From the NCBI GenBank assembly GCA_963826825.1, contig CAWGYV010000009.1, forward strand, positions 151,036 to 215,035: a stretch of 64,000 nt of DNA, in the 5' to 3' direction. Origin of the DNA: an uncultured Acidimicrobiia bacterium. GTDB taxonomy: Bacteria; Actinomycetota; Acidimicrobiia; Spongiisociales; DATADW01. Position numbers and translations under genes: made by a program. This document shows, piece by piece, positions 1,503 to 10,691 of this stretch; positions within the stretch are counted from its first letter, which is position 1, and each line of letters starts with the position of its first letter. The notes below the pieces were generated by a model. It did not search any database. It was not told where the DNA came from and saw only the letters and a program-made list of their open reading frames with translations.

Positions 1503-3063
1503 ATGGCCACGACCGAAATACCTGTCGCTCCACCTCTGCCGGTGACCTCGAACCGCGGACGCCAAGCCATCTCCGGCCTGGTGGCGGCGTTGGCCGCCCT
1601 GGGCGCCGCCGAATTGGTGGCAGGGATGCTCACCGAGGTCCCTTCGCTGCTCGATGCCGTTGGGACATTCGTGATCGACACGGTGCCGCCTGGGGTGAAG
1701 GACGCCGCCATCGCCATCTTCGGCACCAACGACAAAACGGCCCTCCTCGTGGGATCGGTACTCATCATCTCCGGCATCGGTGCGGTGGTCGGGTTGTTGG
1801 CCGCTCGCTGGATGGGATGGGGGATCATCGCCTTCGCCGTTTTCGGGGTGGCAGGGGCGCTGGCTGCGATGCGGCTACCGGACGTGCCTTTGTTTGGCGT
1901 CTGGATCACGGCGATCGTCGCCGCTCTTGTAGGCACGACCGTCCTCGCCGGTCTGTTGCGGCTGGCCACCGCGACCGTCGCCCCAGGCGCGGACAGTGGA
2001 AGGCGGGCATTCATACTCGCCGCCGGCTCGGTGGTGGCGCTGGCTGCGCTGGCTGCTGCCGGCGGGCGCCTCCTCGCCGACCGGGCCCGACGAATGCTCG
2101 CCGGCAGGGAGGATGTGGTCCTGCCGGCGGCGACTGAGACAGTCGCCCCGCCCCCGGCCGAGACGTCGTTCCAGGTCGAGGGACTCTCTCCATTGGTCAC
2201 ACCCAATCCCGACTTCTACCGGATCGACACCGCGCTCACCGTGCCGAGAGTCGATCTGACGTCATGGCGACTCGGGTTCACCGGGATGGTGAGTCGCCCC
2301 TTCGAGATCGACTTCTCCGAATTGATCGAAATGCCCATGGTGGAGCGGCACATCACCATCGCCTGCGTCAGCAACGAGGTCGGCGGCAACCTGATCGGCA
2401 CGGCGAAGTGGCTGGGCGTCCCGCTTCAGGTGCTGCTCGAACGCGCTGAGCTGCAGCCCGGGGCTACCCAGATCGTGGGTCGTTCCGCCGATGGCTTCAC
2501 CGTCGGCTTCCCCACCGAAGCGGCGCTCGACGGGCGGGACGCATTGGTTGCGGTGGGGATGAACGATGAGCCGCTCCCCTTCGAGCACGGGTTCCCCGCC
2601 CGGTTGATCGTCGCCGGGCTGTACGGGTACGTGTCGGCCACCAAGTGGCTGACCGAGGTCGAGCTCACCTCCTGGGATGCCTTTGATGCCTATTGGGTAC
2701 CGCGTGGTTGGGCCAAGGAGGCCCCGATCAAGACCCAGTCACGCATCGATGTCCCGGTGGACCGGAGCCAGCATTCGTCCCGGCCAAAAGGTGATAGCCG
2801 GTGTCGCCTGGGCGCCGACCCGCGGGATCAGCGGTGTCGAGGTGAGGGTCGACGGCGGGCAATGGCAGCCCGCCGAGCTCGCCGCCGAGTTGGTCGACAC
2901 GACATGGCGGCAGTGGCAGATGCCATGGGAAGCAACTTCAGGACGGCACTCGATCATGGTCCGGGCCACCGACGGCAACGGTGACACCCAAACCGATGAA
3001 GTTGCACCCCCAGCCCCCGACGGTGCGACCGGATACCACTCGATCGTGTTCGGCGTGGAGTAG
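1503..3063 (+). CDS. molybdopterin-dependent oxidoreductase (sulfite-oxidase/YedY-type catalytic domain) with an N-terminal multi-TM region; +1 frameshift near 2760
   Basis: ORF 1503..2984 contains FYRIDTAL...ITIACVSNEVGG...GMNDEPLPFEHGFPARLIVAGLYGYVSATKWL. The C-terminal Ig-like dimerisation part (GISGVEVRVDGGQWQPA...WEATSGRHSIMVRATD) is in the frame of ORF 2677..3063. Confidence 0.85.
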
Positions 3064-3076
3064 GACGGGAGACCGC

Positions 3077-3252
3077 CTCCCCCATAGGAATCGATTCCCT
3101 CGCACGGGGGGAGTACCCGACGCCGCAGGCGTCGGGGGAGGGGGAATGGCGAACTCCCAACGGTGCGAAAGCCGCGCCAAGATCACTCTTTGGAAGCTCG
3201 TGCTCCCCACCGCTGCTTCGCAGCGGGTCCCTCCCCCCTTCGGGGGGACGGA
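3077..3252. terminator. cluster of four GC-rich hairpins between convergent genes
   Basis: Stems: ctccccc...gggggag (3077-3113) enclosing the perfect palindrome GGAATCGATTCC (3087-3098); cccgacgcc/ggcgtcggg (3116-3136); ccgctgc/gcagcgg (3210-3226); tcc-tcccccc/gggggga-gga (3228-3252). No U-tracts follow. Confidence 0.55.
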
Positions 3253-3276
3253 AGCAATTGGCCGCAAGGCGGATCC

Positions 3277-4744
3277 CTACCCCCCGGTTACCGGGGTGGT
3301 GCTGCGGGCGTAGGCGAGAACCGCAGCAGCGACGGCGTCGGAGTTGAGGTCGAGCACTTCGAGCGACACGTTGTCGAAGGTGTCGCATGCCTCGTGGTAG
3401 CAGGGGTCGTATTGCTCGCCGACCTGACCGCCGTAGACCGCCGCCTGCTCCGCCGTCTTGATCCCCTCGGCACCGGTGAACAGCCCACCAAAGGGGATTC
3501 CGGCATTGAAGAAGGCGGCGTAGTCGGAGCGGAAGCTGATCTCGGACGGTTCCGAGGCGAGCCCCCGATCGGCGTAGAAGTCCTCGAAGAAGGCCTCGAT
3601 GGCCTCCGACCCCGGGGGTCCGGCGAGCCCGAAGGCGGAGCCGTCGCCGTCGTAGATGAACCGGACGTAGTTGGGGGATCCGACCATGTCGAAGTTCAGG
3701 TAGAGGGCGATCCGATCGAGCTGGCCCGGAGCCAGGTTGGCGACGTAATAGTTCGACCCGATGAGGTTTGACTCCTCTGCGCTCCACCAGGCGAAGCGCA
3801 GCTTGTTTCGGGGGTTGATCCGGCGCATCTGCTCCGCCACCTCGAGCAGGGCGGCCGACCCGCTCCCGTTGTCGTTGATCCCGGGCCCGGCCGCAACCGA
3901 GTCGAGGTGCGCGCCCGCCATGACGACGTTCTCCGGATTGCCACCCCGCGACTCGGCGAAGACGTTCGATGTCGTCTCCGGGGCCCGGTACACGTCGGCG
4001 ACCATGTGCATCTCGAGCCCGGTGGTCTCTGACAACTCCACGCCCAATGCGTACGGGATGAGCATCACCGGGATCCCGCCGGAGTAGGCGTCGGTCAGGT
4101 TGCCGCCGAACAGACCGGTGCGGTCCTCGGTGTTGCCCTGGTTGAAGATGATCACACCGATCGCACCCGCTGCGGCGGCGTTCTCCGCCTTGAGCTGGAA
4201 GGTGCAGGTTCCTCGCTGGATGAGGGCGATGTTCCCGGCGGGGAAGTTGGCGAAGTCCTCGGTCTCGCAACCGCTCGTCGTCGTGTTCCCAAGCCCGAGT
4301 TGGAGGTCGACCGCAGTCACGGGTCCGGCCACGTCGCCCGGCTCGGTCTGTTGTGCCAGTTGGTAATCCACTCCCTCGACGTAAGTGACCTGCTCCGGCG
4401 ATGTCTGTTCGAGGGTGGAGGGGCCCAGCGGGTATGAAGGCGACGAACTCGAACTCCTGGATGGTGACCCGGTAGCCGGCGCGTCGCATACGGGTGGCGA
4501 CGTAGTCGGCCGACTCGTCGTAGCCGTCGAATCCGGCGACCCGGGTTCCGCCGTTGGCGTCTGCGATCTCCTGGAAGGCGGCCTGGTGCTCCCGCACTCC
4601 CTCGACCGTCACGCACTCGAGGAGCCTCTCTGTCGTGTTGTTCGGTCTGCGGTCGCACACCGCCGGTGTCACCTGCGCCGAGGCCGGAACCGCAGTCAAC
4701 AAGAAGAGGACCACGGTCAGAGCTGCAACGGCCTTGGATCGCAT
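3277..4744 (-). CDS. secreted M28-family aminopeptidase with a PA domain; +1 frameshift near 4429
   Basis: The signal peptide and N-terminus (MRSKAVAALTVVLFLLTAVPASAQ...AGYRVTIQEFEF) lie in the frame of ORF 2954..4744. The PA and M28 domains (GAHLDSVAAGPGINDNGSGSAALLE...WWSAEESNLIGS) lie in ORF 3277..4371. Confidence 0.85.
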
Positions 4745-4859: not shown

Positions 4860-5684
4860 GTGCTCACCATCGCCCAGTTGTCCGACATCCACTGCGGCTC
4901 CCAGTATTTCGACCCCGACCTGCTCCGTCACGCCGTCGAGGAGATCCTCGCCCTCCAACCCGACATGGTCGTCGTCGCCGGCGACCTCACCCAGGAGGGC
5001 TACGCCAACGAGTTCCAGATGGCTCGTGACGCGCTGCGTCCCCTGGTCGACGAATTGCTCACCGTGGTCGTCCCCGGCAACCACGATGCCAAGAACGTCG
5101 GATATGTCCATTTCGAGGACCATTTCGGCAAGGGCGACGCCGGAAACGACGTGGTCGTTGACCTGGCCAGGGGTATCGAGCCGGAGCGGGTGACGCTGGT
5201 TGCCGTGGACAGCTCCAAGCCCGACCTCGCCGAGGGAGAGGTGGGGAGGGTCCGCTACCCCTGGATCCGCGAGCAGTTCACCACGCCTTCGGACCTGCGC
5301 ATATTCGCCCTCCATCACCACCTGGTGCCGGTCCCGGGGACGGGGCGGGAGCGCAACACCGTGTGGGATGCCGGCGATGTGCTGGCGGTGCTCGAGGAGA
5401 GCGAGGTCGATCTGGTCCTGTGTGGCCACAAGCACGTGCCCCACATCTGGGTGGTTGACGGGATCATGGTGGTCAACAGCGGGACGGTCTCGTCCTTCCG
5501 GCTCCGCGGTTACACCAGACCGTCGTACAACGTGGTCACCGTCGATTCCGAGGCCATCTCGGTGACGCTGATGTACCCGGGCAGCGGCGAGAAGCTGGCC
5601 GCCAGGTACGACCGAAACACACGGGTACTCGACCGCAATCCCGAGTTGGCAGGCATGTTCTCCAAGTCCAGTTGGGGCTGGTGA
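4860..5684 (+). CDS. metallophosphoesterase (calcineurin-like phosphoesterase)
   Basis: Intact ORF with the motifs LSDIHCG, AGDLTQEG, GNHD and GHKHVPH. Confidence 0.85.
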   Translation: MLTIAQLSDIHCGSQYFDPDLLRHAVEEILALQPDMVVVAGDLTQEGYANEFQMARDALRPLVDELLTVVVPGNHDAKNVGYVHFEDHFGKGDAGNDVVVDLARGIEPERVTLVAVDSSKPDLAEGEVGRVRYPWIREQFTTPSDLRIFALHHHLVPVPGTGRERNTVWDAGDVLAVLEESEVDLVLCGHKHVPHIWVVDGIMVVNSGTVSSFRLRGYTRPSYNVVTVDSEAISVTLMYPGSGEKLAARYDRNTRVLDRNPELAGMFSKSSWGW

Positions 5685-5986
5685 GCTACATCCGCTTCTT
5701 CCTCTCTGCGGTCTCCCCCGACGATGTCGAGGAGGTCGTCAGCCTCTTCGAGGCGGACGTCGTCCCCGCCTTCCGCGATCATCCCGACTGCCTCGGGATC
5801 GACCTGGTGATCGCAGAGGAGGCCGGGGTGAGCGGACTGGTCGAGGGTGGGGTGGTCACCCGCTGGACATCGGTGGAGGCCATGGAGGCCGCTCTCGACT
5901 CCCCGGCACTCGTCGGTAGCCAGGAACGCGTGCGGGGCATGCTCCGCCGCGAGCCGATCCGCAAGATCTACCGCGTGCTCGGCTGA
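5672..5986 (+). CDS. small ABM/Dabb-fold (antibiotic biosynthesis monooxygenase-like) protein
   Basis: 104-aa ORF with an ABM-like pattern (IRFFL..V.P..VEEV..LF...V.PAFRDHPDCLG..L......WTSVEAMEAAL). The start could be the GTG at 5681, overlapping the upstream stop. Confidence 0.5.
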   Translation: MGLVSYIRFFLSAVSPDDVEEVVSLFEADVVPAFRDHPDCLGIDLVIAEEAGVSGLVEGGVVTRWTSVEAMEAALDSPALVGSQERVRGMLRREPIRKIYRVLG

Positions 5987-7277
5987 GGCTCCCGGGGCGA
6001 GGCCAGCCGCTGCTTCCAATACGCCGGCCAGTGTCTCCATGCCGCCGTCGATCTCGACGACGTTGTGCAGCAGCCCGACCTCGATCCCGGCCGCGATCCG
6101 CCCAGGGGAGCACCACATCGGCTGCTGCGGCCTTCACCTCGGTGAGCACCAGATCGCACGGGGGAGTGGCTTCGAGGTCGGCAAGAAGGCGGTCGCGCCT
6201 CGAGAGGGTGTGGACCACGGAGACCGCCGCCGCACCGAGGCCGCGCAACTGGGCGGCCAACTCTTCGCCGGCGGTTTCTGGGGCGGTGGTGGCCACGATC
6301 AGCCGTCGGCCTTCCACCGGCACCGTCGGTTCGACCCGGTAGCGACCCTCGAAGATCGCCGCTCCCGGCGATACCCGGCGGACGGTCGCTGCGGCCGGGC
6401 CGCCGTCGTTCACCACGACGACGGCGTCGGCCAGCGCCAACCTGAAAGGGCCCAGGTAGCCGGTGATGTACTCGGGATCGAGCCGGGACCGCATCACCAG
6501 GACGCTCGCATCCGAGTGCGCCGGGGGGAGGGCGGTCCCGCTCCCCTCGAAGATGAGCAGCCCGGGGTCGAGGAGGTCCGCCGCGGCCACCCCTGCGGCG
6601 AACGTGTCGGCGACGGTGACCCCGGCAGGGCCGGCGCCGATACGCCTCGTCCCGACGGTGGGGACCCCGGCGAAAATGGCGTCCTCGACATAGTCAGAAG
6701 CGGCGTGGAGCCCGCGGCTCGCCAATGAGCGGAGCGCCTCGACGCCATCACCGAGATCTGTGGGGTCGAGGACTACGGGCGCCGCCGGTCCGCCGCGTCC
6801 CATCGTGACCACAACCGGATTTCTGCCCGTGCCCGACCAGTGGCGCGCCAGGGCGATCGACACCGCCGTCTTGCCCGTTCGCTTCCCAGTGCCCACCACC
6901 GCCACCGACGGTGTTGCCGTCAGCCGGGGCATGGGGGGAGGGTCGAACCGGAAGCCCCCACCGGCGTAGGCGACACCGGCGGCGAGAGCCACCCCGAGCA
7001 GGGCGAAGCGGGCCCGGTGATCGAGCACCGGTTCGTCGCTCATGTCGAAGACGATCTCGGGTCGGTAGTGCGCGATCAGGTCATCGAGGGTCTGCATCGG
7101 GTCGCCGGTGTGGACCGGGATCACAAGGTCGGGGGGGCCCGCCGTCTTCTCAGATCCACCCAGGAACAACGCGGCCACCGGCACCATGCCTCGTCGCTCC
7201 AACTCGGCCAGGCCGTCGAGCACCACAGATGGATGGTGCTCTCCGTCGATGAGGATCAGGGCCCGGGCGGGCGTCAC
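5968..7277 (-). CDS. cyclic 2,3-diphosphoglycerate synthetase-like protein; +1 frameshift near 6110 and probably another near 6000
   Basis: A GTG start overlaps the upstream stop (GTGA). The sequence has MTPARALILIDGEHHPSVV, the P-loop VVGTGKRTGKTAVS and TEVKAAA. The C-terminus continues in the frame of ORF 5510..6118 (GRIAAGIEVGLLHNVVEIDGG) and probably then in the frame of ORF 5968..6159. The exact 3' end is uncertain. Confidence 0.7.
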
Positions 7278-8218
7278 CCGGCGACGACCACCTGGTTCTC
7301 CCCGGTGATGCTGGTCACCTCTGCCACCACCAGATCGAGTACCTGTTGGATCGCCTCGTCGAGGTCGGCTGCGTCCACGAGTGAGAACCCGTGGGCCAGG
7401 GCCAAATCCTCCAGGTGGGCCTGGATCCTCCGGATCTCACCGAGGTTTCTCAGGTAGCGCTCCGGGCGGCGGCCATGCTCGCTCTCCAGGCGACCGATGA
7501 AGTGGGCCCTGTGCACCGAGGCATCTCTCAGGGTGAGCAGGACCTTCACCACCGCCGCTTCGAGGCGGAAGCGATGGAGCATCTCCTCGTCGAGCATCCC
7601 CGGCACGAGGTGGATCCCCTCGACGATGGAGTCCTTGTGCTCGGCGATCATCCTCCCCACCAGACCGTCGATCCCGGTCGCAACCGATCGGCTCTGGCGG
7701 AGGAAGCCGTCGATCAGTTGGTCCGACCCCCCGCCCACCTCGAACGAAGACGAGTGCAGCTCCGGCGCCTGCAGGGCAGGCATGAAGGTGCGCATCACCT
7801 CGCGCACGGTGTCGGTGGGAATGACCCTGGTGATGCCCAAGCGGGCCGCCAGCTTGGTGGCGACCGTCGACTTGCCCACGCCGGTGGCGCCGCCGATGAG
7901 GACCACGATGGGGCGTGGGGAGCGCTTCGCCGCTCTCCATGCAAGATAACGGCGCGCAATGTGGTCGCCCTCATGTCGGAGCAAGACGTTGCCGGCGATA
8001 CCGGAGAGCGTGTCGGCATCTACCGAGTCCCGTCCCAGGTAGAGCAGGTCGTGCTCGATCAACTCGGCGAGGTCGAAGGCACGGCCAGGCGGGATGCCCG
8101 TGGCCATTATCGAAGCGGCCATCAACCCTTTCGAGTAGGGCAGGTTGGCGCCCTCGCGATCGGCGACCAAGACGCGCCGTCGCACTTGCCCGTTGATGTC
8201 GGCTCTCCGGTGCGGCAT
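7274..8218 (-). CDS. 2-phosphoglycerate kinase-like protein (ATP-cone plus P-loop kinase)
   Basis: Intact 314-aa ORF. It has an N-terminal ATP-cone-like segment (RRVLVADREGANLPYSKGLMAASI), then LIGGATGVGKSTVATKLAARLGITRVIPTDTVREVMR and IVEGIHLVPG. Confidence 0.75.
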   Translation of the reverse strand: MPHRRADINGQVRRRVLVADREGANLPYSKGLMAASIMATGIPPGRAFDLAELIEHDLLYLGRDSVDADTLSGIAGNVLLRHEGDHIARRYLAWRAAKRSPRPIVVLIGGATGVGKSTVATKLAARLGITRVIPTDTVREVMRTFMPALQAPELHSSSFEVGGGSDQLIDGFLRQSRSVATGIDGLVGRMIAEHKDSIVEGIHLVPGMLDEEMLHRFRLEAAVVKVLLTLRDASVHRAHFIGRLESEHGRRPERYLRNLGEIRRIQAHLEDLALAHGFSLVDAADLDEAIQQVLDLVVAEVTSITGENQVVVAG

Positions 8219-8510
8219 GTCCTCCGCCCCCTCATGTCGGCCGGTCCCAGACCGGCGATCCGCGGAGAGCCAGCGAACTGGCCTCCTTCCTGCTGCCTAC
8301 GGGGTTAGCTGACGGGCTCGGGCCGGAAGGCGCCCTACCCGGTGTACCCGGGATTCGCCCCATGAGATTGGGTCCCCCGCCCCGATCGCACCCGACCGGG
8401 CTCGGCGTGACGGAGAGAATACCGAAATTTGGAGGTATGCGGACCCGGCGGCCGAAAAATTTGCCGCCCGCGGCGTCGGGCGGGATGGTCCGACCGACCA
8501 GAATCCCAGC

Positions 8511-10223
8511 GTGCGACCCGATCTCCACCTCGACGATGGCGACGTCGGTCTGCTCGACGGTGACCGGGGTGAGGGGGCGCGAATCGCCATGGAACTGGTC
8601 GTCGGAGCGGCCAAGGCCGTTGGTGCGGATCGACTGCTCGACATCAGCGGAGCGCACGTCGATGGGTGCCTCTACCACGGTCAGGCGGGTCTCGACTTCG
8701 CCCAACGGCTCGTCGGATCCGGTGCCAGGGTGGCCGTGCCCACCACCCTCAACGTGTCAACGCTCGACCTGCTCCATCCCGAGCGCTTTCGGGGGGATCC
8801 GGAATTGGCTGCGCAGGCCCGCAGGCTCATGGATGCCTACGTGGAGATGGGCTGCCGTCCTACCTGGACCTGTTCCCCATACCAGTTGATCGAGCGTCCT
8901 TCGTTCGGAGACCAGGTTGCCTGGGCCGAGTCGAACGCGATCGTTTTCGCCAACAGCGTCCTCGGGGCTCGTACCGGTCGTTACGGAGACTTCATCGACA
9001 TATGCGCCGCAATCACCGGTCGGGCCCCTGCCGCCGGGCTTCATCTCGACGCCGGGCGGCGAGCCCGTCTCGTGGTGCGTCTCGATGGCGTCCCCGACGA
9101 CTGGTTGGCCGATGACGCCCTCTATCCGGTGCTTGGTCATCTCCTCGGCCGGGTGGCGGGGTCGAGAGTCCCGGTGTTGGTCGGTCTCCCCCCCGAGACC
9201 GACGAGGACCGGTTGAAGGCGCTCGGTGCCGCCGCGGCATCGGCGGGCTCGGTGGCGATGTTCCATGCCGTGGGGGTGACTCCCGAGGCGTCCACCCTCG
9301 AAGACGCCCTCGGGGACCTCGAGCCCGAGTCCGAGGTGCTCGTCGATCCAGCATTGCTCTCGGCGGCCGCCGCCGAGCTCTCAACCACAAGCGGGGGGCG
9401 GCTCGATGCGGTGTGCCTGGGCACACCTCACGCTTCGAGGGCCGAGCTCGCCGAGCTCGCCGGGATGCTTGGTGGCCACAAGGTACGAGTCGACACCTAT
9501 GTCAACGCCGGTCGCGGAGACATCTCAGCTGCCCGATCACACGTCGAGATCCTCGAGGCCGCCGGAGTCCGGTTGGTCAGCGACACCTGCACCTATATCA
9601 CCCCGATTCTCGACCCCGCGGCGAGGGTGGTGATGACCGACTCGGCCAAATGGGCCTGGTACGCCCCGGCCAATCTCGGAGTGGAGGTGATGTTCGGCTC
9701 GCGCCGCGACTGCGTCGCCTCGGCGATAGCAGGCGAGGTTCGCCGGGAGTCTCCACTCCGGCCCGGCGGCGGTCCGATCCGTTGGGAGGAGTTCGCCCTG
9801 ACCGATCAACAGGAGTCTGCCCGTGCCGTCCTCGTTCCGGGAAGGGCCGGCGGCCCGGCTCTGCCCCTCCACCAGCCACTCTCGTTCTGGGGTGGAGTCG
9901 ACCCCACCGTGGGGCGGATCATCGATCCCCATCACCCCCAGTTGGGAGAGTCCGTCACCGGCCGGGTATTGGTCATGCCCGCCGGGCGCGGGTCCAGCTC
10001 GTCGTCGAGCGTCCTCGCCGAGTCGCTCCGGCTCGGTACCGGTCCGGCGGCGATCGTCCTATCCGAGCGGGACGTCATCATCGCCGTCGGGGCGATCGCC
10101 GCCTTCGAGCTCTATGGGGTGGTCTGCCCGGTTGTGGTCGTCGCCCCCGAGGAGGCGCCCCTTGTATCAGGGGTGCCGGTTGCGGTTGTGGCAGGCGACG
10201 GTGAGTTGAACGTCGTCTGGTAG
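8511..10223 (+). CDS. fused aconitase X (DUF521 large domain plus DUF126 swivel domain)
   Basis: Intact 570-aa ORF. It contains LLDISGAHVDGCLY, WAESNAIVFANSVLGARTGRYG and TDSAKWAWYAP, followed by the DUF126-like tail LSFWGGVDP..G.I.D..HP..G.S..G..LVMP.GRGSSSSS. Confidence 0.8.
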   Translation: MRPDLHLDDGDVGLLDGDRGEGARIAMELVVGAAKAVGADRLLDISGAHVDGCLYHGQAGLDFAQRLVGSGARVAVPTTLNVSTLDLLHPERFRGDPELAAQARRLMDAYVEMGCRPTWTCSPYQLIERPSFGDQVAWAESNAIVFANSVLGARTGRYGDFIDICAAITGRAPAAGLHLDAGRRARLVVRLDGVPDDWLADDALYPVLGHLLGRVAGSRVPVLVGLPPETDEDRLKALGAAAASAGSVAMFHAVGVTPEASTLEDALGDLEPESEVLVDPALLSAAAAELSTTSGGRLDAVCLGTPHASRAELAELAGMLGGHKVRVDTYVNAGRGDISAARSHVEILEAAGVRLVSDTCTYITPILDPAARVVMTDSAKWAWYAPANLGVEVMFGSRRDCVASAIAGEVRRESPLRPGGGPIRWEEFALTDQQESARAVLVPGRAGGPALPLHQPLSFWGGVDPTVGRIIDPHHPQLGESVTGRVLVMPAGRGSSSSSSVLAESLRLGTGPAAIVLSERDVIIAVGAIAAFELYGVVCPVVVVAPEEAPLVSGVPVAVVAGDGELNVVW

Positions 10224-10691
10224 CCGCCGAGGAGCTCGCCGAACCGGTCGTCCCAGTCCAAGGATCTCCCCTCGATCGCGGCCCCGAGCAGATCGAGATA
10301 GGCGTGCCACCCGGCGCCGTAGCCGGGAGCCTGGCCGACGCCGAGCAGGCGGTGGGTGAGGGTCAAGACGGTGCGGTCGCCTTCGGCCCGCAGTTCGAAA
10401 CGCACCACGCTGTCGGGCTCACCGGGGAAGCGCCACTCGTACTCGATGAGGTGGGGCGCCTCGAGCCGCTGGATCCGTCCCGTGGACAAGCCCGTCATCG
10501 GTCTCGTCGAAACGATGCTCGACGGTTCCCCCCACCCGAAGGTCGATCTTGGTAGCTGCCAGCCATCGCTCGAGTCGGTCCGCCTCGGTGAGCCATCGCC
10601 AGGTCTCGGCGATGTCGGCGTCGACGCTCCGTTCGAACCGAACGGTGGCGTGTTGCGGATCACGCTCGATGAATGTCCCGTGGTCGCTCAT
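10112..10691 (-). CDS. SRPBCC/AHSA1-family protein; +1 frameshift near 10490, 3' end uncertain
   Basis: The N-terminus (MSDHGTFIERDPQHATVRFERSVDADIAETWRWLTEADRLERW) is in ORF 10419..10691. The rest (RIQRLEAPHLIEYEWRFPGEPDSVVRFELRAEGDRTVLTLTH...) is in ORF 10112..10663. The start overlaps the arsR stop by 4 nt. Confidence 0.7.

Follow-up and report, generated by a model that had tools for sequence, protein, structure and literature searches.

The 64,000-nucleotide stretch of DNA analysed here (the window) was found to encode homologues of the two enzymes that produce cyclic 2,3-diphosphoglycerate (cDPG), a 2-phosphoglycerate kinase (2PGK) and a cDPG synthetase (cDPGS), behind a c-di-AMP riboswitch and close to a metallophosphoesterase gene. 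The preferred reading is of a bacterial cDPG pathway linked to osmotic and potassium signalling, with the phosphoesterase as its catabolic arm and the frame breaks in the synthetase as artefacts; the probability of this reading is put at roughly 0.6. The riboswitch and the conserved phosphoesterase, both overlooked in the preliminary description of this DNA, are the most informative features for function. The host appears to be a soil-type actinobacterium of the class Acidimicrobiia that carries clear counterparts of both archaeal cDPG-making enzymes. The genomes nearest to it are metagenome bins from the environment that carry the label Acidimicrobiia, and a soil survey is the probable source of some; the host is presumably not a thermophile.

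The operon is read from the minus strand. The riboswitch aptamer (ydaO class, Rfam RF00379; 8279..8417) lies in its 5' leader and is followed by the kinase homologue (7274..8218; 314 aa, intact) and the synthetase homologue (5968..7277; GTG start at 7277, stop TAG at 5968-5970). The stop codon of the kinase and the start codon of the synthetase overlap in a GTGA at 7274-7277, which is legible directly in the sequence. A coupled pair with the motifs GGATGVGKST, LIDGEHHP and GTGKRTGKT had been described at these positions; the pair, its coupling and all three motifs were found, as was the divergent fused aconitase-X (AcnX) gene on the plus strand (8511-10223). The GC content of the pair (0.67-0.72) is like that of the flanks.

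The aptamer matched RF00379 over the full length of the model (positions 1-134 of 134) at 84.5 bits against a gathering score of 38 (E=3.4e-19). It lies on the coding strand, with 60 nt separating it from the kinase ATG downstream. The same element was present at the same place in congeneric loci L003-L011, with an invariant core in 7/7 congeneric genomes; its 3' half is identical in the 7 genomes and a compensatory change was seen at one pair. No second RF00379 match was detected in the host genome, which also encodes a DAC-domain diadenylate cyclase. Riboswitches of the ydaO class are known upstream of potassium and amino-acid transporter genes and of cell-wall enzyme genes, and in Streptomyces rpfA the binding of c-di-AMP leads to premature transcription termination (PMC10117811). 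The leader resembles those of Bacillus subtilis kimA and Streptomyces rpfA (both RF00379) in its full-length aptamer, conserved core and position in a coding-strand 5' leader, and differs from them in that the genes it would govern are a solute-synthesis pair. No published link between an RF00379 riboswitch and 2PGK was found in the literature searched. That the riboswitch generally accompanies cDPG loci in bacteria was rejected, since all 78 loci of lineages outside the host genus lacked it. Within the leader, no U-tract terminator and no clear sequestering helix were found, and folding was no better than that of shuffled sequence (z=0.24); promoter and terminator scans of the locus gave nothing convincing. 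A possible anti-Shine-Dalgarno pairing, of CUCUCCGC against GCGGAGGA, was noted in this leader, which folds no better than its shuffles.

The following mechanism is proposed. The kinase would convert 2-phosphoglycerate to 2,3-diphosphoglycerate (2,3-DPG), as suggested by its homology and its tight coupling to the synthetase. The synthetase would join the two phosphates in an ATP-driven ring closure to give the cyclic pyrophosphate cDPG, a step suggested by homology to a solved enzyme with 10 of 11 mapped residues kept. Throughout the genus both genes would be transcribed behind the riboswitch; the aptamer is present, and its effect is predicted by analogy with known leaders. Since the described members of the class switch genes off when c-di-AMP binds, the operon would be on at low c-di-AMP. 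It would thus be expressed together with potassium and solute uptake, and cDPG would act as an anionic compatible solute and K+ counter-ion. In the least secure step, the co-inherited metallophosphoesterase may reopen the cDPG ring or dephosphorylate 2,3-DPG.

The same enzymes may instead make 2,3-DPG and cDPG as a reserve of phosphate, carbon or energy, or as a protectant against oxidation or desiccation, and not as an osmolyte; this was judged rather unlikely. In its favour, the module occurs in Rubrobacter, a radiation- and desiccation-resistant genus. Outside the host genus the module lacks the riboswitch, so the osmotic link is shown for this lineage only. Storage roles have been discussed for methanogen cDPG: that of Methanothermobacter as a store of carbon and phosphate, and that of Methanothermus fervidus, whose synthetase is reversible, as a possible energy store (PMC1224877). 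cDPG also protects DNA from hydroxyl radicals (PMC10690619). Against a purely storage or protective use, the sole detectable c-di-AMP riboswitch of the organism is dedicated to this operon. c-di-AMP is a messenger for potassium and osmotic balance, and the placement of the operon behind this riboswitch therefore groups it with the potassium and osmotic functions of the riboswitch class. Moreover, storage or protection and an osmolyte role are not mutually exclusive.

One or two frameshifts had been suspected near the 3' end of the synthetase gene; the assembly contains exactly two. Both are single-base insertions, in CC at 6089-6090 and in AA at 6014-6015, and in each the extra base turns a single base into a two-base run seen in 0/9 congeneric loci. 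The frame is shifted twice, and the conserved C-terminus (...QRLASPREPQPSTR) with its stop codon is legible in the third frame only. Intact congeneric synthetases are 435 aa long.

Taken at face value, the breaks would make the synthetase a true, recently formed pseudogene in this population, with the pathway dead here and intact in sister species. In the assembly, out-of-frame sequence takes the place of the last ~45 residues, and the affected region in the archaeal enzyme includes a hinge (residues 420-427). Helix alpha14 of the archaeal enzyme, which we take to be near the C-terminus, contributes to the adenosine pocket. The gene would also have acquired two independent breaks within 77 nt. 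Decay of the gene was nevertheless considered unlikely. Both breaks are one-base homopolymer expansions that the other genomes of the genus lack. Elsewhere the gene has no stop codons and 98% identity to an intact relative, and the kinase, riboswitch and phosphoesterase are all intact. In the same assembly (78% 'complete', 24 contigs) further unique 1-nt insertions interrupt an AHSA1 gene, and the gene for an M28 peptidase is split over two frames. Two more genomes of the genus, both of low completeness and in few contigs, also have a split synthetase gene, broken at different places. The closest genomes, all metagenome bins, have contig names resembling Flye long-read output and are probably long-read assemblies. 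Because the homopolymer expansions are unique to an assembly that breaks other genes likewise, both frame breaks are most probably long-read assembly errors, and the synthetase is probably intact in the organism. In practical terms, the apparent frameshifts in this window, most likely assembly noise, should not be taken for gene decay.

The assembled synthetase matched the structures of M. fervidus cDPGS (PDB 8ORK and 8ORU) with E=1.6e-65 over residues 5-390 of the window ORF, and the intact 98% identical relative (P0001, 435 aa) aligned to the same enzyme over residues 5-406. The window and archaeal synthetases share their length class, the N-terminal DGEH domain, the P-loop GTGKRxGKT and the residues that contact 2,3-DPG, Mg and phosphate. 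Of the ligand-contact residues named in PMC10690619, E45, K46, K145, R146, K149, T150, D208, T353, E404 and K406 are identical in the window protein. D208 is an Mg ligand, E45 and K46 come from the partner subunit, and K145, R146, K149 and T150 lie in the Walker A motif GTGKRxGKT. The eleventh, E305, which contacts ADP in the archaeal enzyme, is replaced by Gly. Pfam and NCBIfam scans of the synthetase gave nothing useful; a Pfam match was lacking because PF27272 (CpgS_N) was absent from the models scanned, and this family appears in precomputed annotations.

For the kinase, the best profiles were the NCBIfam 2PGK models PRK12337 (2.2e-75, 254 bits) and PRK04220 (1e-70, 238 bits), both scores being below the curated cut-offs of 603 and 343 bits, respectively. 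The protein is identified by these matches as a 2PGK homologue, and exact functional equivalence is not established by the profiles. An N-terminal ATP-cone followed by a P-loop had been reported in it. The P-loop is clear; the ATP-cone match is weak (Pfam PF03477, E=0.0043, 18 bits against a gathering score of 25.8). ATP-cone matches are carried by the archaeal operon partner kinases. The kinase is 32% identical to the gene located after cDPGS in Pyrococcus furiosus.

These scores bear on whether the bacterial proteins act on other substrates and yield another cyclic or pyrophosphorylated acid, in which case the bacterial proteins would be misnamed in the databases. The synthetase shares only ~37% identity, and the kinase 31-32%, with the characterised archaeal enzymes. 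The kinase falls under the curated family cut-offs and belongs to a family that includes other specificities, such as mevalonate-3-phosphate 5-kinase. A change of substrate is nevertheless doubtful. The window protein has the identical residue at each position aligned to a 2,3-DPG, Mg or phosphate contact given for the archaeal structure, and 9 of the 10 kept residues do not vary among 9 aligned bacterial and archaeal sequences (the exception is the position aligned to T150). The same two-gene pairing is found in archaea, and in the tree the archaeal and bacterial sequences fell into a single family, and no distinct group of paralogues was seen.

The pair is not peculiar to the host genome. 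In a sample of 401 Actinomycetota genomes, cDPGS was counted in 227, 2PGK in 228 and the phosphoesterase in 226, and all three genes were present in about 227 (~57%). By-family tallies of the phosphoesterase equalled those of cDPGS and 2PGK to within one genome per family. Kinase and synthetase were neighbours in 73 of the 80 named Actinomycetota loci. Database matches to the synthetase run into the thousands, and many are already automatically named cDPGS. The physiological role of the pair in bacteria had been thought uncharacterised, and no published report of the pathway, or of cDPG, in a bacterium was found in the literature searched.

The association of these enzymes with hyperthermophilic methanogens also had to be revised. 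cDPG has been stated to occur 'exclusively' in hyperthermophilic methanogens (PMC10690619) and to be restricted to methanogens (PMC10690619, PMC12136491). The cDPGS family was found to be near-universal in Methanobacteriales, including the mesophilic Methanobacterium and Methanobrevibacter, and to occur in Thermococcales and Theionarchaea. When the locus was compared with the cDPG pathway of M. fervidus and Methanothermobacter (8ORK, 8ORU; PMC10690619, PMC12136491), homologues of both enzymes were present here. The differences are that the host is bacterial, that a c-di-AMP riboswitch is present and that E305 is substituted. The two genes overlap in one operon here, whereas cpgS and the kinase gene are separated in Methanothermobacter and Methanobacterium. 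The cDPGS-2PGK operons of P. furiosus and Theionarchaea resemble the locus in their adjacent and overlapping kinase and synthetase genes, and in Theionarchaea a homologous phosphoesterase comes after them. The Theionarchaea phosphoesterase is fused in tandem and has a CBS protein before it. Gene order is synthetase then kinase in P. furiosus, Theionarchaea and most Actinomycetota, and kinase then synthetase in the host genus.

Synthetase identity was 82-98% within the genus, 50-58% within the order, 38-47% to other classes and ~37% to archaea. The tree was made without an outgroup, and its archaeal sampling consisted of Methanobacteriales and one Thermococcales sequence, so the direction of an ancient transfer between domains is not resolvable from it. 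Transfer from archaea to bacteria had been proposed for checking by phylogeny, and the tree gave no sign of a recent archaeal transfer into the host lineage. Recent horizontal acquisition of the pair from a methanogen or other archaeon, a reading favoured by the first recognition of the family in archaea and by its patchy occurrence within the host order (4 of 12 sampled families), is very improbable, given that the nearest relatives are all Acidimicrobiia (clade support 100%) with identity declining with taxonomic distance, that Methanobacteriales form their own clade far from that of the window, that the other 5 genomes of the genus all have the cDPGS gene at this position and that the base composition of the pair is like that of its flanks.

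The calcineurin-like metallophosphoesterase (4860..5684, plus strand; 274 aa; Pfam Metallophos, 1.1e-19) is convergent with the synthetase and retains all metal-binding motifs (DIH, GD, GNHD, HHH, GHKH). It adjoins cDPGS in 31 of the 80 named Actinomycetota loci and is 36% identical to the tandem phosphoesterase of the Theionarchaea cDPGS-2PGK-CBS operon. Methanothermobacter has two homologues; in its archaeal phylum cDPGS was present in 140/151 genomes, so the archaeal sample cannot discriminate co-occurrence with the phosphoesterase. No characterised close relative was found, the nearest solved structures being the class III enzymes GpdQ (PDB 2ZO9, 3D03) and Rv0805 (PDB 2HY1) at E about 5e-9. 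The window protein shares the calcineurin-like fold motifs with these over ~165 aligned residues; the similarity is remote, and the uncharacterised subfamily to which it belongs co-travels with cDPGS and 2PGK in Actinomycetota and in the Theionarchaea operon. The protein is a candidate cDPG or 2,3-DPG hydrolase, which would be the breakdown enzyme of the pathway.

A wider proposal is offered tentatively, at somewhat less than even odds: far from being peculiar to hyperthermophilic methanogens, cDPG would commonly serve mesophilic soil Actinomycetota as a compatible solute and K+ counter-ion. A three-gene module would make and degrade it, with the phosphoesterase as the long-missing cDPG hydrolase, and in the host genus c-di-AMP would switch synthesis directly through the riboswitch. 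The papers found present cDPG as protecting a few hot-spring methanogens from heat and as an extremolyte that is hard to make and of industrial interest. If common mesophilic soil Actinomycetota do make it, the role of cDPG would have to be rethought in terms of osmotic and potassium balance, desiccation or phosphate economy, and many new moderate-temperature enzymes would become usable for its production. The conserved phosphoesterase would then provide a concrete candidate for the breakdown enzyme; to our knowledge, no gene has been assigned to this activity. The riboswitch would provide a direct link from c-di-AMP signalling to solute synthesis, and we know of no earlier case in which this riboswitch class controls the synthesis of an osmolyte rather than its uptake.

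Two other neighbours of the pair were considered. AcnX was rejected as a functional partner, as it is adjacent in 2 of 80 loci, both in the host genus. A small ABM-domain protein (5681..5986, plus strand; Pfam ABM, 6e-5) was rejected as a core member of the module, being found in 7 of 80 loci, all within the host order. It comprises 101 aa from a GTG at 5681, where a GTGA overlaps the phosphoesterase stop codon, or 104 aa from a TTG at 5672. The 3' end of this gene overlaps that of the synthetase by 19 nt, and the gene was also called in L003 and L004.

[quoted passage not shown] The pair itself, claimed in the preliminary description, was confirmed. The 2PGK homologue lies at 7274-8218 on the reverse strand (ATG at 8218, 314 aa); the cDPGS homologue runs on the same strand from GTG 7277 to TAG 5968-5970, its frame broken twice in the window assembly. 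At the junction, ...GCC GGG TGA, the GTG start lies within the end of the kinase frame, and the proposed translational coupling is borne out by this GTGA shared between stop and start. The best profile matches of the kinase were two NCBIfam 2-phosphoglycerate kinase models (2.2e-75 and 1e-70), with scores under the NCBI curated cut-offs for both. Its P-loop, GGATGVGKST, was found as described, and the N-terminal ATP-cone described with it gave a faint match (18 bits, E=0.0043). Residues 5-390 of the synthetase matched Methanothermus fervidus cDPGS (PDB 8ORK, 8ORU) at E=1.6e-65. PF27272 (CpgS_N) was the precomputed annotation on every synthetase homologue. The putative enzyme assignment of the pair, made by homology, is well supported.

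In M. fervidus cDPGS, 2,3-DPG, Mg2+ and the nucleotide phosphates are held by E45 and K46 (from the partner subunit), K145, R146, K149, T150, D208, T353, E404 and K406 (PMC10690619). Counted along HMMER alignments, 10/10 of these contact residues are identical in the window protein, where they are carried by the motifs GGSEK, GTGKRTGKT, HAASD, ATTAP and TEVKAAA. When eight bacterial sequences were aligned with the archaeal enzyme, nine of the ten positions were listed as invariant, all but the one aligned to T150. Of the residues listed, only E305, which contacts adenosine or ribose, differs in the window protein, which has Gly there.

A complete c-di-AMP riboswitch aptamer (RF00379) was detected by Rfam scan at 8279-8417 on the reverse strand (84.5 bits against a gathering score of 38), its 3' edge 60 nt upstream of the kinase ATG. 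It is the sole such element in the window genome, which also encodes a DAC-domain diadenylate cyclase. The riboswitch occupies the same place in every locus compared from the window organism's genus. Seven genomes whose nearby coding sequences are 78-96% identical share one and the same 3' half of the element, and a compensatory change was seen in one stem pair. No such riboswitch was found within about 4 kb of 78 loci from other families and classes, and it is therefore an innovation of this genus, the gain coinciding there with an inverted gene order, kinase to synthetase. Genes known to follow riboswitches of this class encode potassium transporters, amino-acid transporters and cell-wall enzymes, and in the Streptomyces rpfA leader c-di-AMP binding leads to premature transcription termination (PMC10117811). 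By analogy with that leader, low c-di-AMP would leave the operon switched on. cDPG in methanogens is a polyanion accumulated with K+, which would fit a role here as a synthesised compatible solute and counter-ion. Searches of the leader turned up no clear expression platform. No paper linking a c-di-AMP riboswitch to 2PGK was found. A GC-rich hairpin followed by CAAATTTTTC was also seen at 8454-8483 on the reverse strand; it sits in the divergent intergenic region, upstream of the riboswitch, and no reverse-strand gene precedes it.

A calcineurin-like metallophosphoesterase gene (4860-5684, 274 aa), in which no metal-binding motif is missing, converges on the synthetase gene. Its stop codon overlaps, through GTGA, the start of a small ABM-domain gene that comes next. 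Phosphoesterases 45-73% identical to it adjoin the synthetase in 31/80 loci; in distant classes the three genes share one strand, the phosphoesterase first, then synthetase and kinase. Across 401 genomes drawn evenly from the phylum, the phosphoesterase was present in 226 (E<=1e-40). Its family tallies equalled those of the synthetase and kinase within one genome per family, and the same large families were without any of the three. Methanothermobacter has two homologues (40-45% identity). A Theionarchaea contig (L099, 5001-9165) carries a four-gene operon that encodes cDPGS, 2PGK, a protein with a CBS domain and a metallophosphoesterase of two tandem domains; each half of the latter is homologous to the window phosphoesterase (36% identity, 6e-51). 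Adjacency, co-occurrence and these archaeal homologues are evidence that the phosphoesterase belongs to the cDPG module. Its nearest solved structures, the phosphodiesterases GpdQ and Rv0805, are remote. Membranes of Methanothermobacter are reported to contain a cDPG hydrolase activity (PMC1224877), to which, to our knowledge, no gene has been assigned. The window phosphoesterase may be regarded as a reasonable candidate for a cDPG hydrolase.

The rarity implied for the pair in bacteria was not borne out. At least 2,916 proteins matched the synthetase query at E<=1e-10 (8,000 candidates scored), mostly from Acidimicrobiia bins, and many already bear the name cDPG synthetase at NCBI or JGI. The gene was present in 5/5 other genomes of the genus and in 4/12 sampled families of the order Spongiisociales. 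In the 401-genome sample, synthetase homologues were found in 227 genomes and kinase homologues in 228, with nearly equal tallies by family. Named loci with the module come from Acidimicrobiia, Rubrobacter, Euzebyaceae, Coriobacteriia, Geothermincolia and Thermoleophilia; the kinase adjoins the synthetase in 73/80, usually in the order synthetase to kinase. Among archaea, nearly all Methanobacteriales have a cDPGS family member, the mesophilic Methanobacterium and Methanobrevibacter among them, and the family also occurs in Theionarchaea and in Thermococcales such as Pyrococcus furiosus. The family is therefore confined neither to hyperthermophiles nor to archaea. A literature search found no treatment of a bacterial cDPG pathway, and the papers found give cDPG as exclusive to hyperthermophilic methanogens. 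In both Methanothermobacter and Methanobacterium (L090, L091) cpgS is flanked by a UPF0058 gene and a RimB-like gene, with the kinase and phosphoesterase homologues elsewhere on the chromosome. P. furiosus has an overlapping cDPGS-2PGK operon (L098, 5001-7185); cDPG is not known to be among its reported solutes.

Archaea-to-bacteria transfer had been raised as a possibility, and a maximum-likelihood tree of 86 sequences (unrooted, with narrow archaeal sampling) gave no sign of a recent event. The window's relative sits in a fully supported clade of eight, six of which carry the label Acidimicrobiia; the sister of this relative, L010, goes under 'uncultured Actinomycetes' yet belongs to the same genus by GTDB grouping. 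The next large group comprises other Acidimicrobiia. Methanobacteriales form one separate clade; together with Rubrobacteria, Thermoleophilia, Coriobacteriia and Geothermincolia it makes up a supported group. Synthetase identity declines steadily with taxonomic distance and the base composition of the pair is that of its flanks, which together favour an old, vertically inherited presence in Actinomycetota over a recent acquisition from archaea. The cDPGS genes of three bins labelled Burkholderiales, Eubacteriales and Acidobacteria (L027, L049, L079) nest within actinobacterial clades, which suggests mis-binning, mislabelling or occasional transfer.

The two 3' frameshifts of the preliminary description are present in the assembly and are probably artefacts. 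By three-frame translation, synthetase homology runs in the starting frame up to ...AAADVVLPWADR, shifts to a second (...GIEVGLLHNVVEIDGGMETLAGVLE) and ends in the third (...QRLASPREPQPSTR, stop TAG 5968-5970). The segment order is exactly that of P0001, an intact 435-aa relative (98% identical) from another assembly. The window DNA was aligned first with two congeneric contigs (three-way) and then, over a 180-nt region, in a ten-way alignment; these placed window-only extra bases in CC 6089-6090 and AA 6014-6015, each a single base turned into a two-base run. Other window-only 1-nt insertions occur in the divergent intergenic region at 8366 (inside the aptamer loop region) and 8460. A further one at about 10478, in the three-way alignment, splits an AHSA1/SRPBCC gene (10112-10691, reverse strand, downstream of arsR) that is intact in the congeneric loci L003 and L004 (191-192 aa). 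An M28 peptidase gene with a PA domain (2954-4744, reverse strand) is split over two frames, with a 1-nt indel near 4433 in alignment with L003; in that 95% identical relative the gene is likewise called as two pieces, which is more evidence of indel errors in both assemblies. L003 carries private 1-nt insertions in other genes. The window genome is a bin of 24 contigs, 78% complete by score. The named relatives nearest to it are bins with "MFD..." labels, whose contigs are named in Flye style; they are probably long-read assemblies from a soil survey. Within the genus the synthetase gene is split at quite different positions in two few-contig, low-completeness genomes and intact in three. Because of these private insertions, the incomplete bin, the Flye-style relatives and the differing splits, the breaks are probably homopolymer errors of long-read assembly.

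The fused AcnX protein noted as a neighbour (8511-10223, forward strand) had its best match, at 524 bits, in a cis-3-hydroxy-L-proline dehydratase model whose cut-off is 700. AcnX adjoins the cDPG operon in 2/80 loci, in this genus only, and is therefore probably an incidental neighbour unrelated to the operon.
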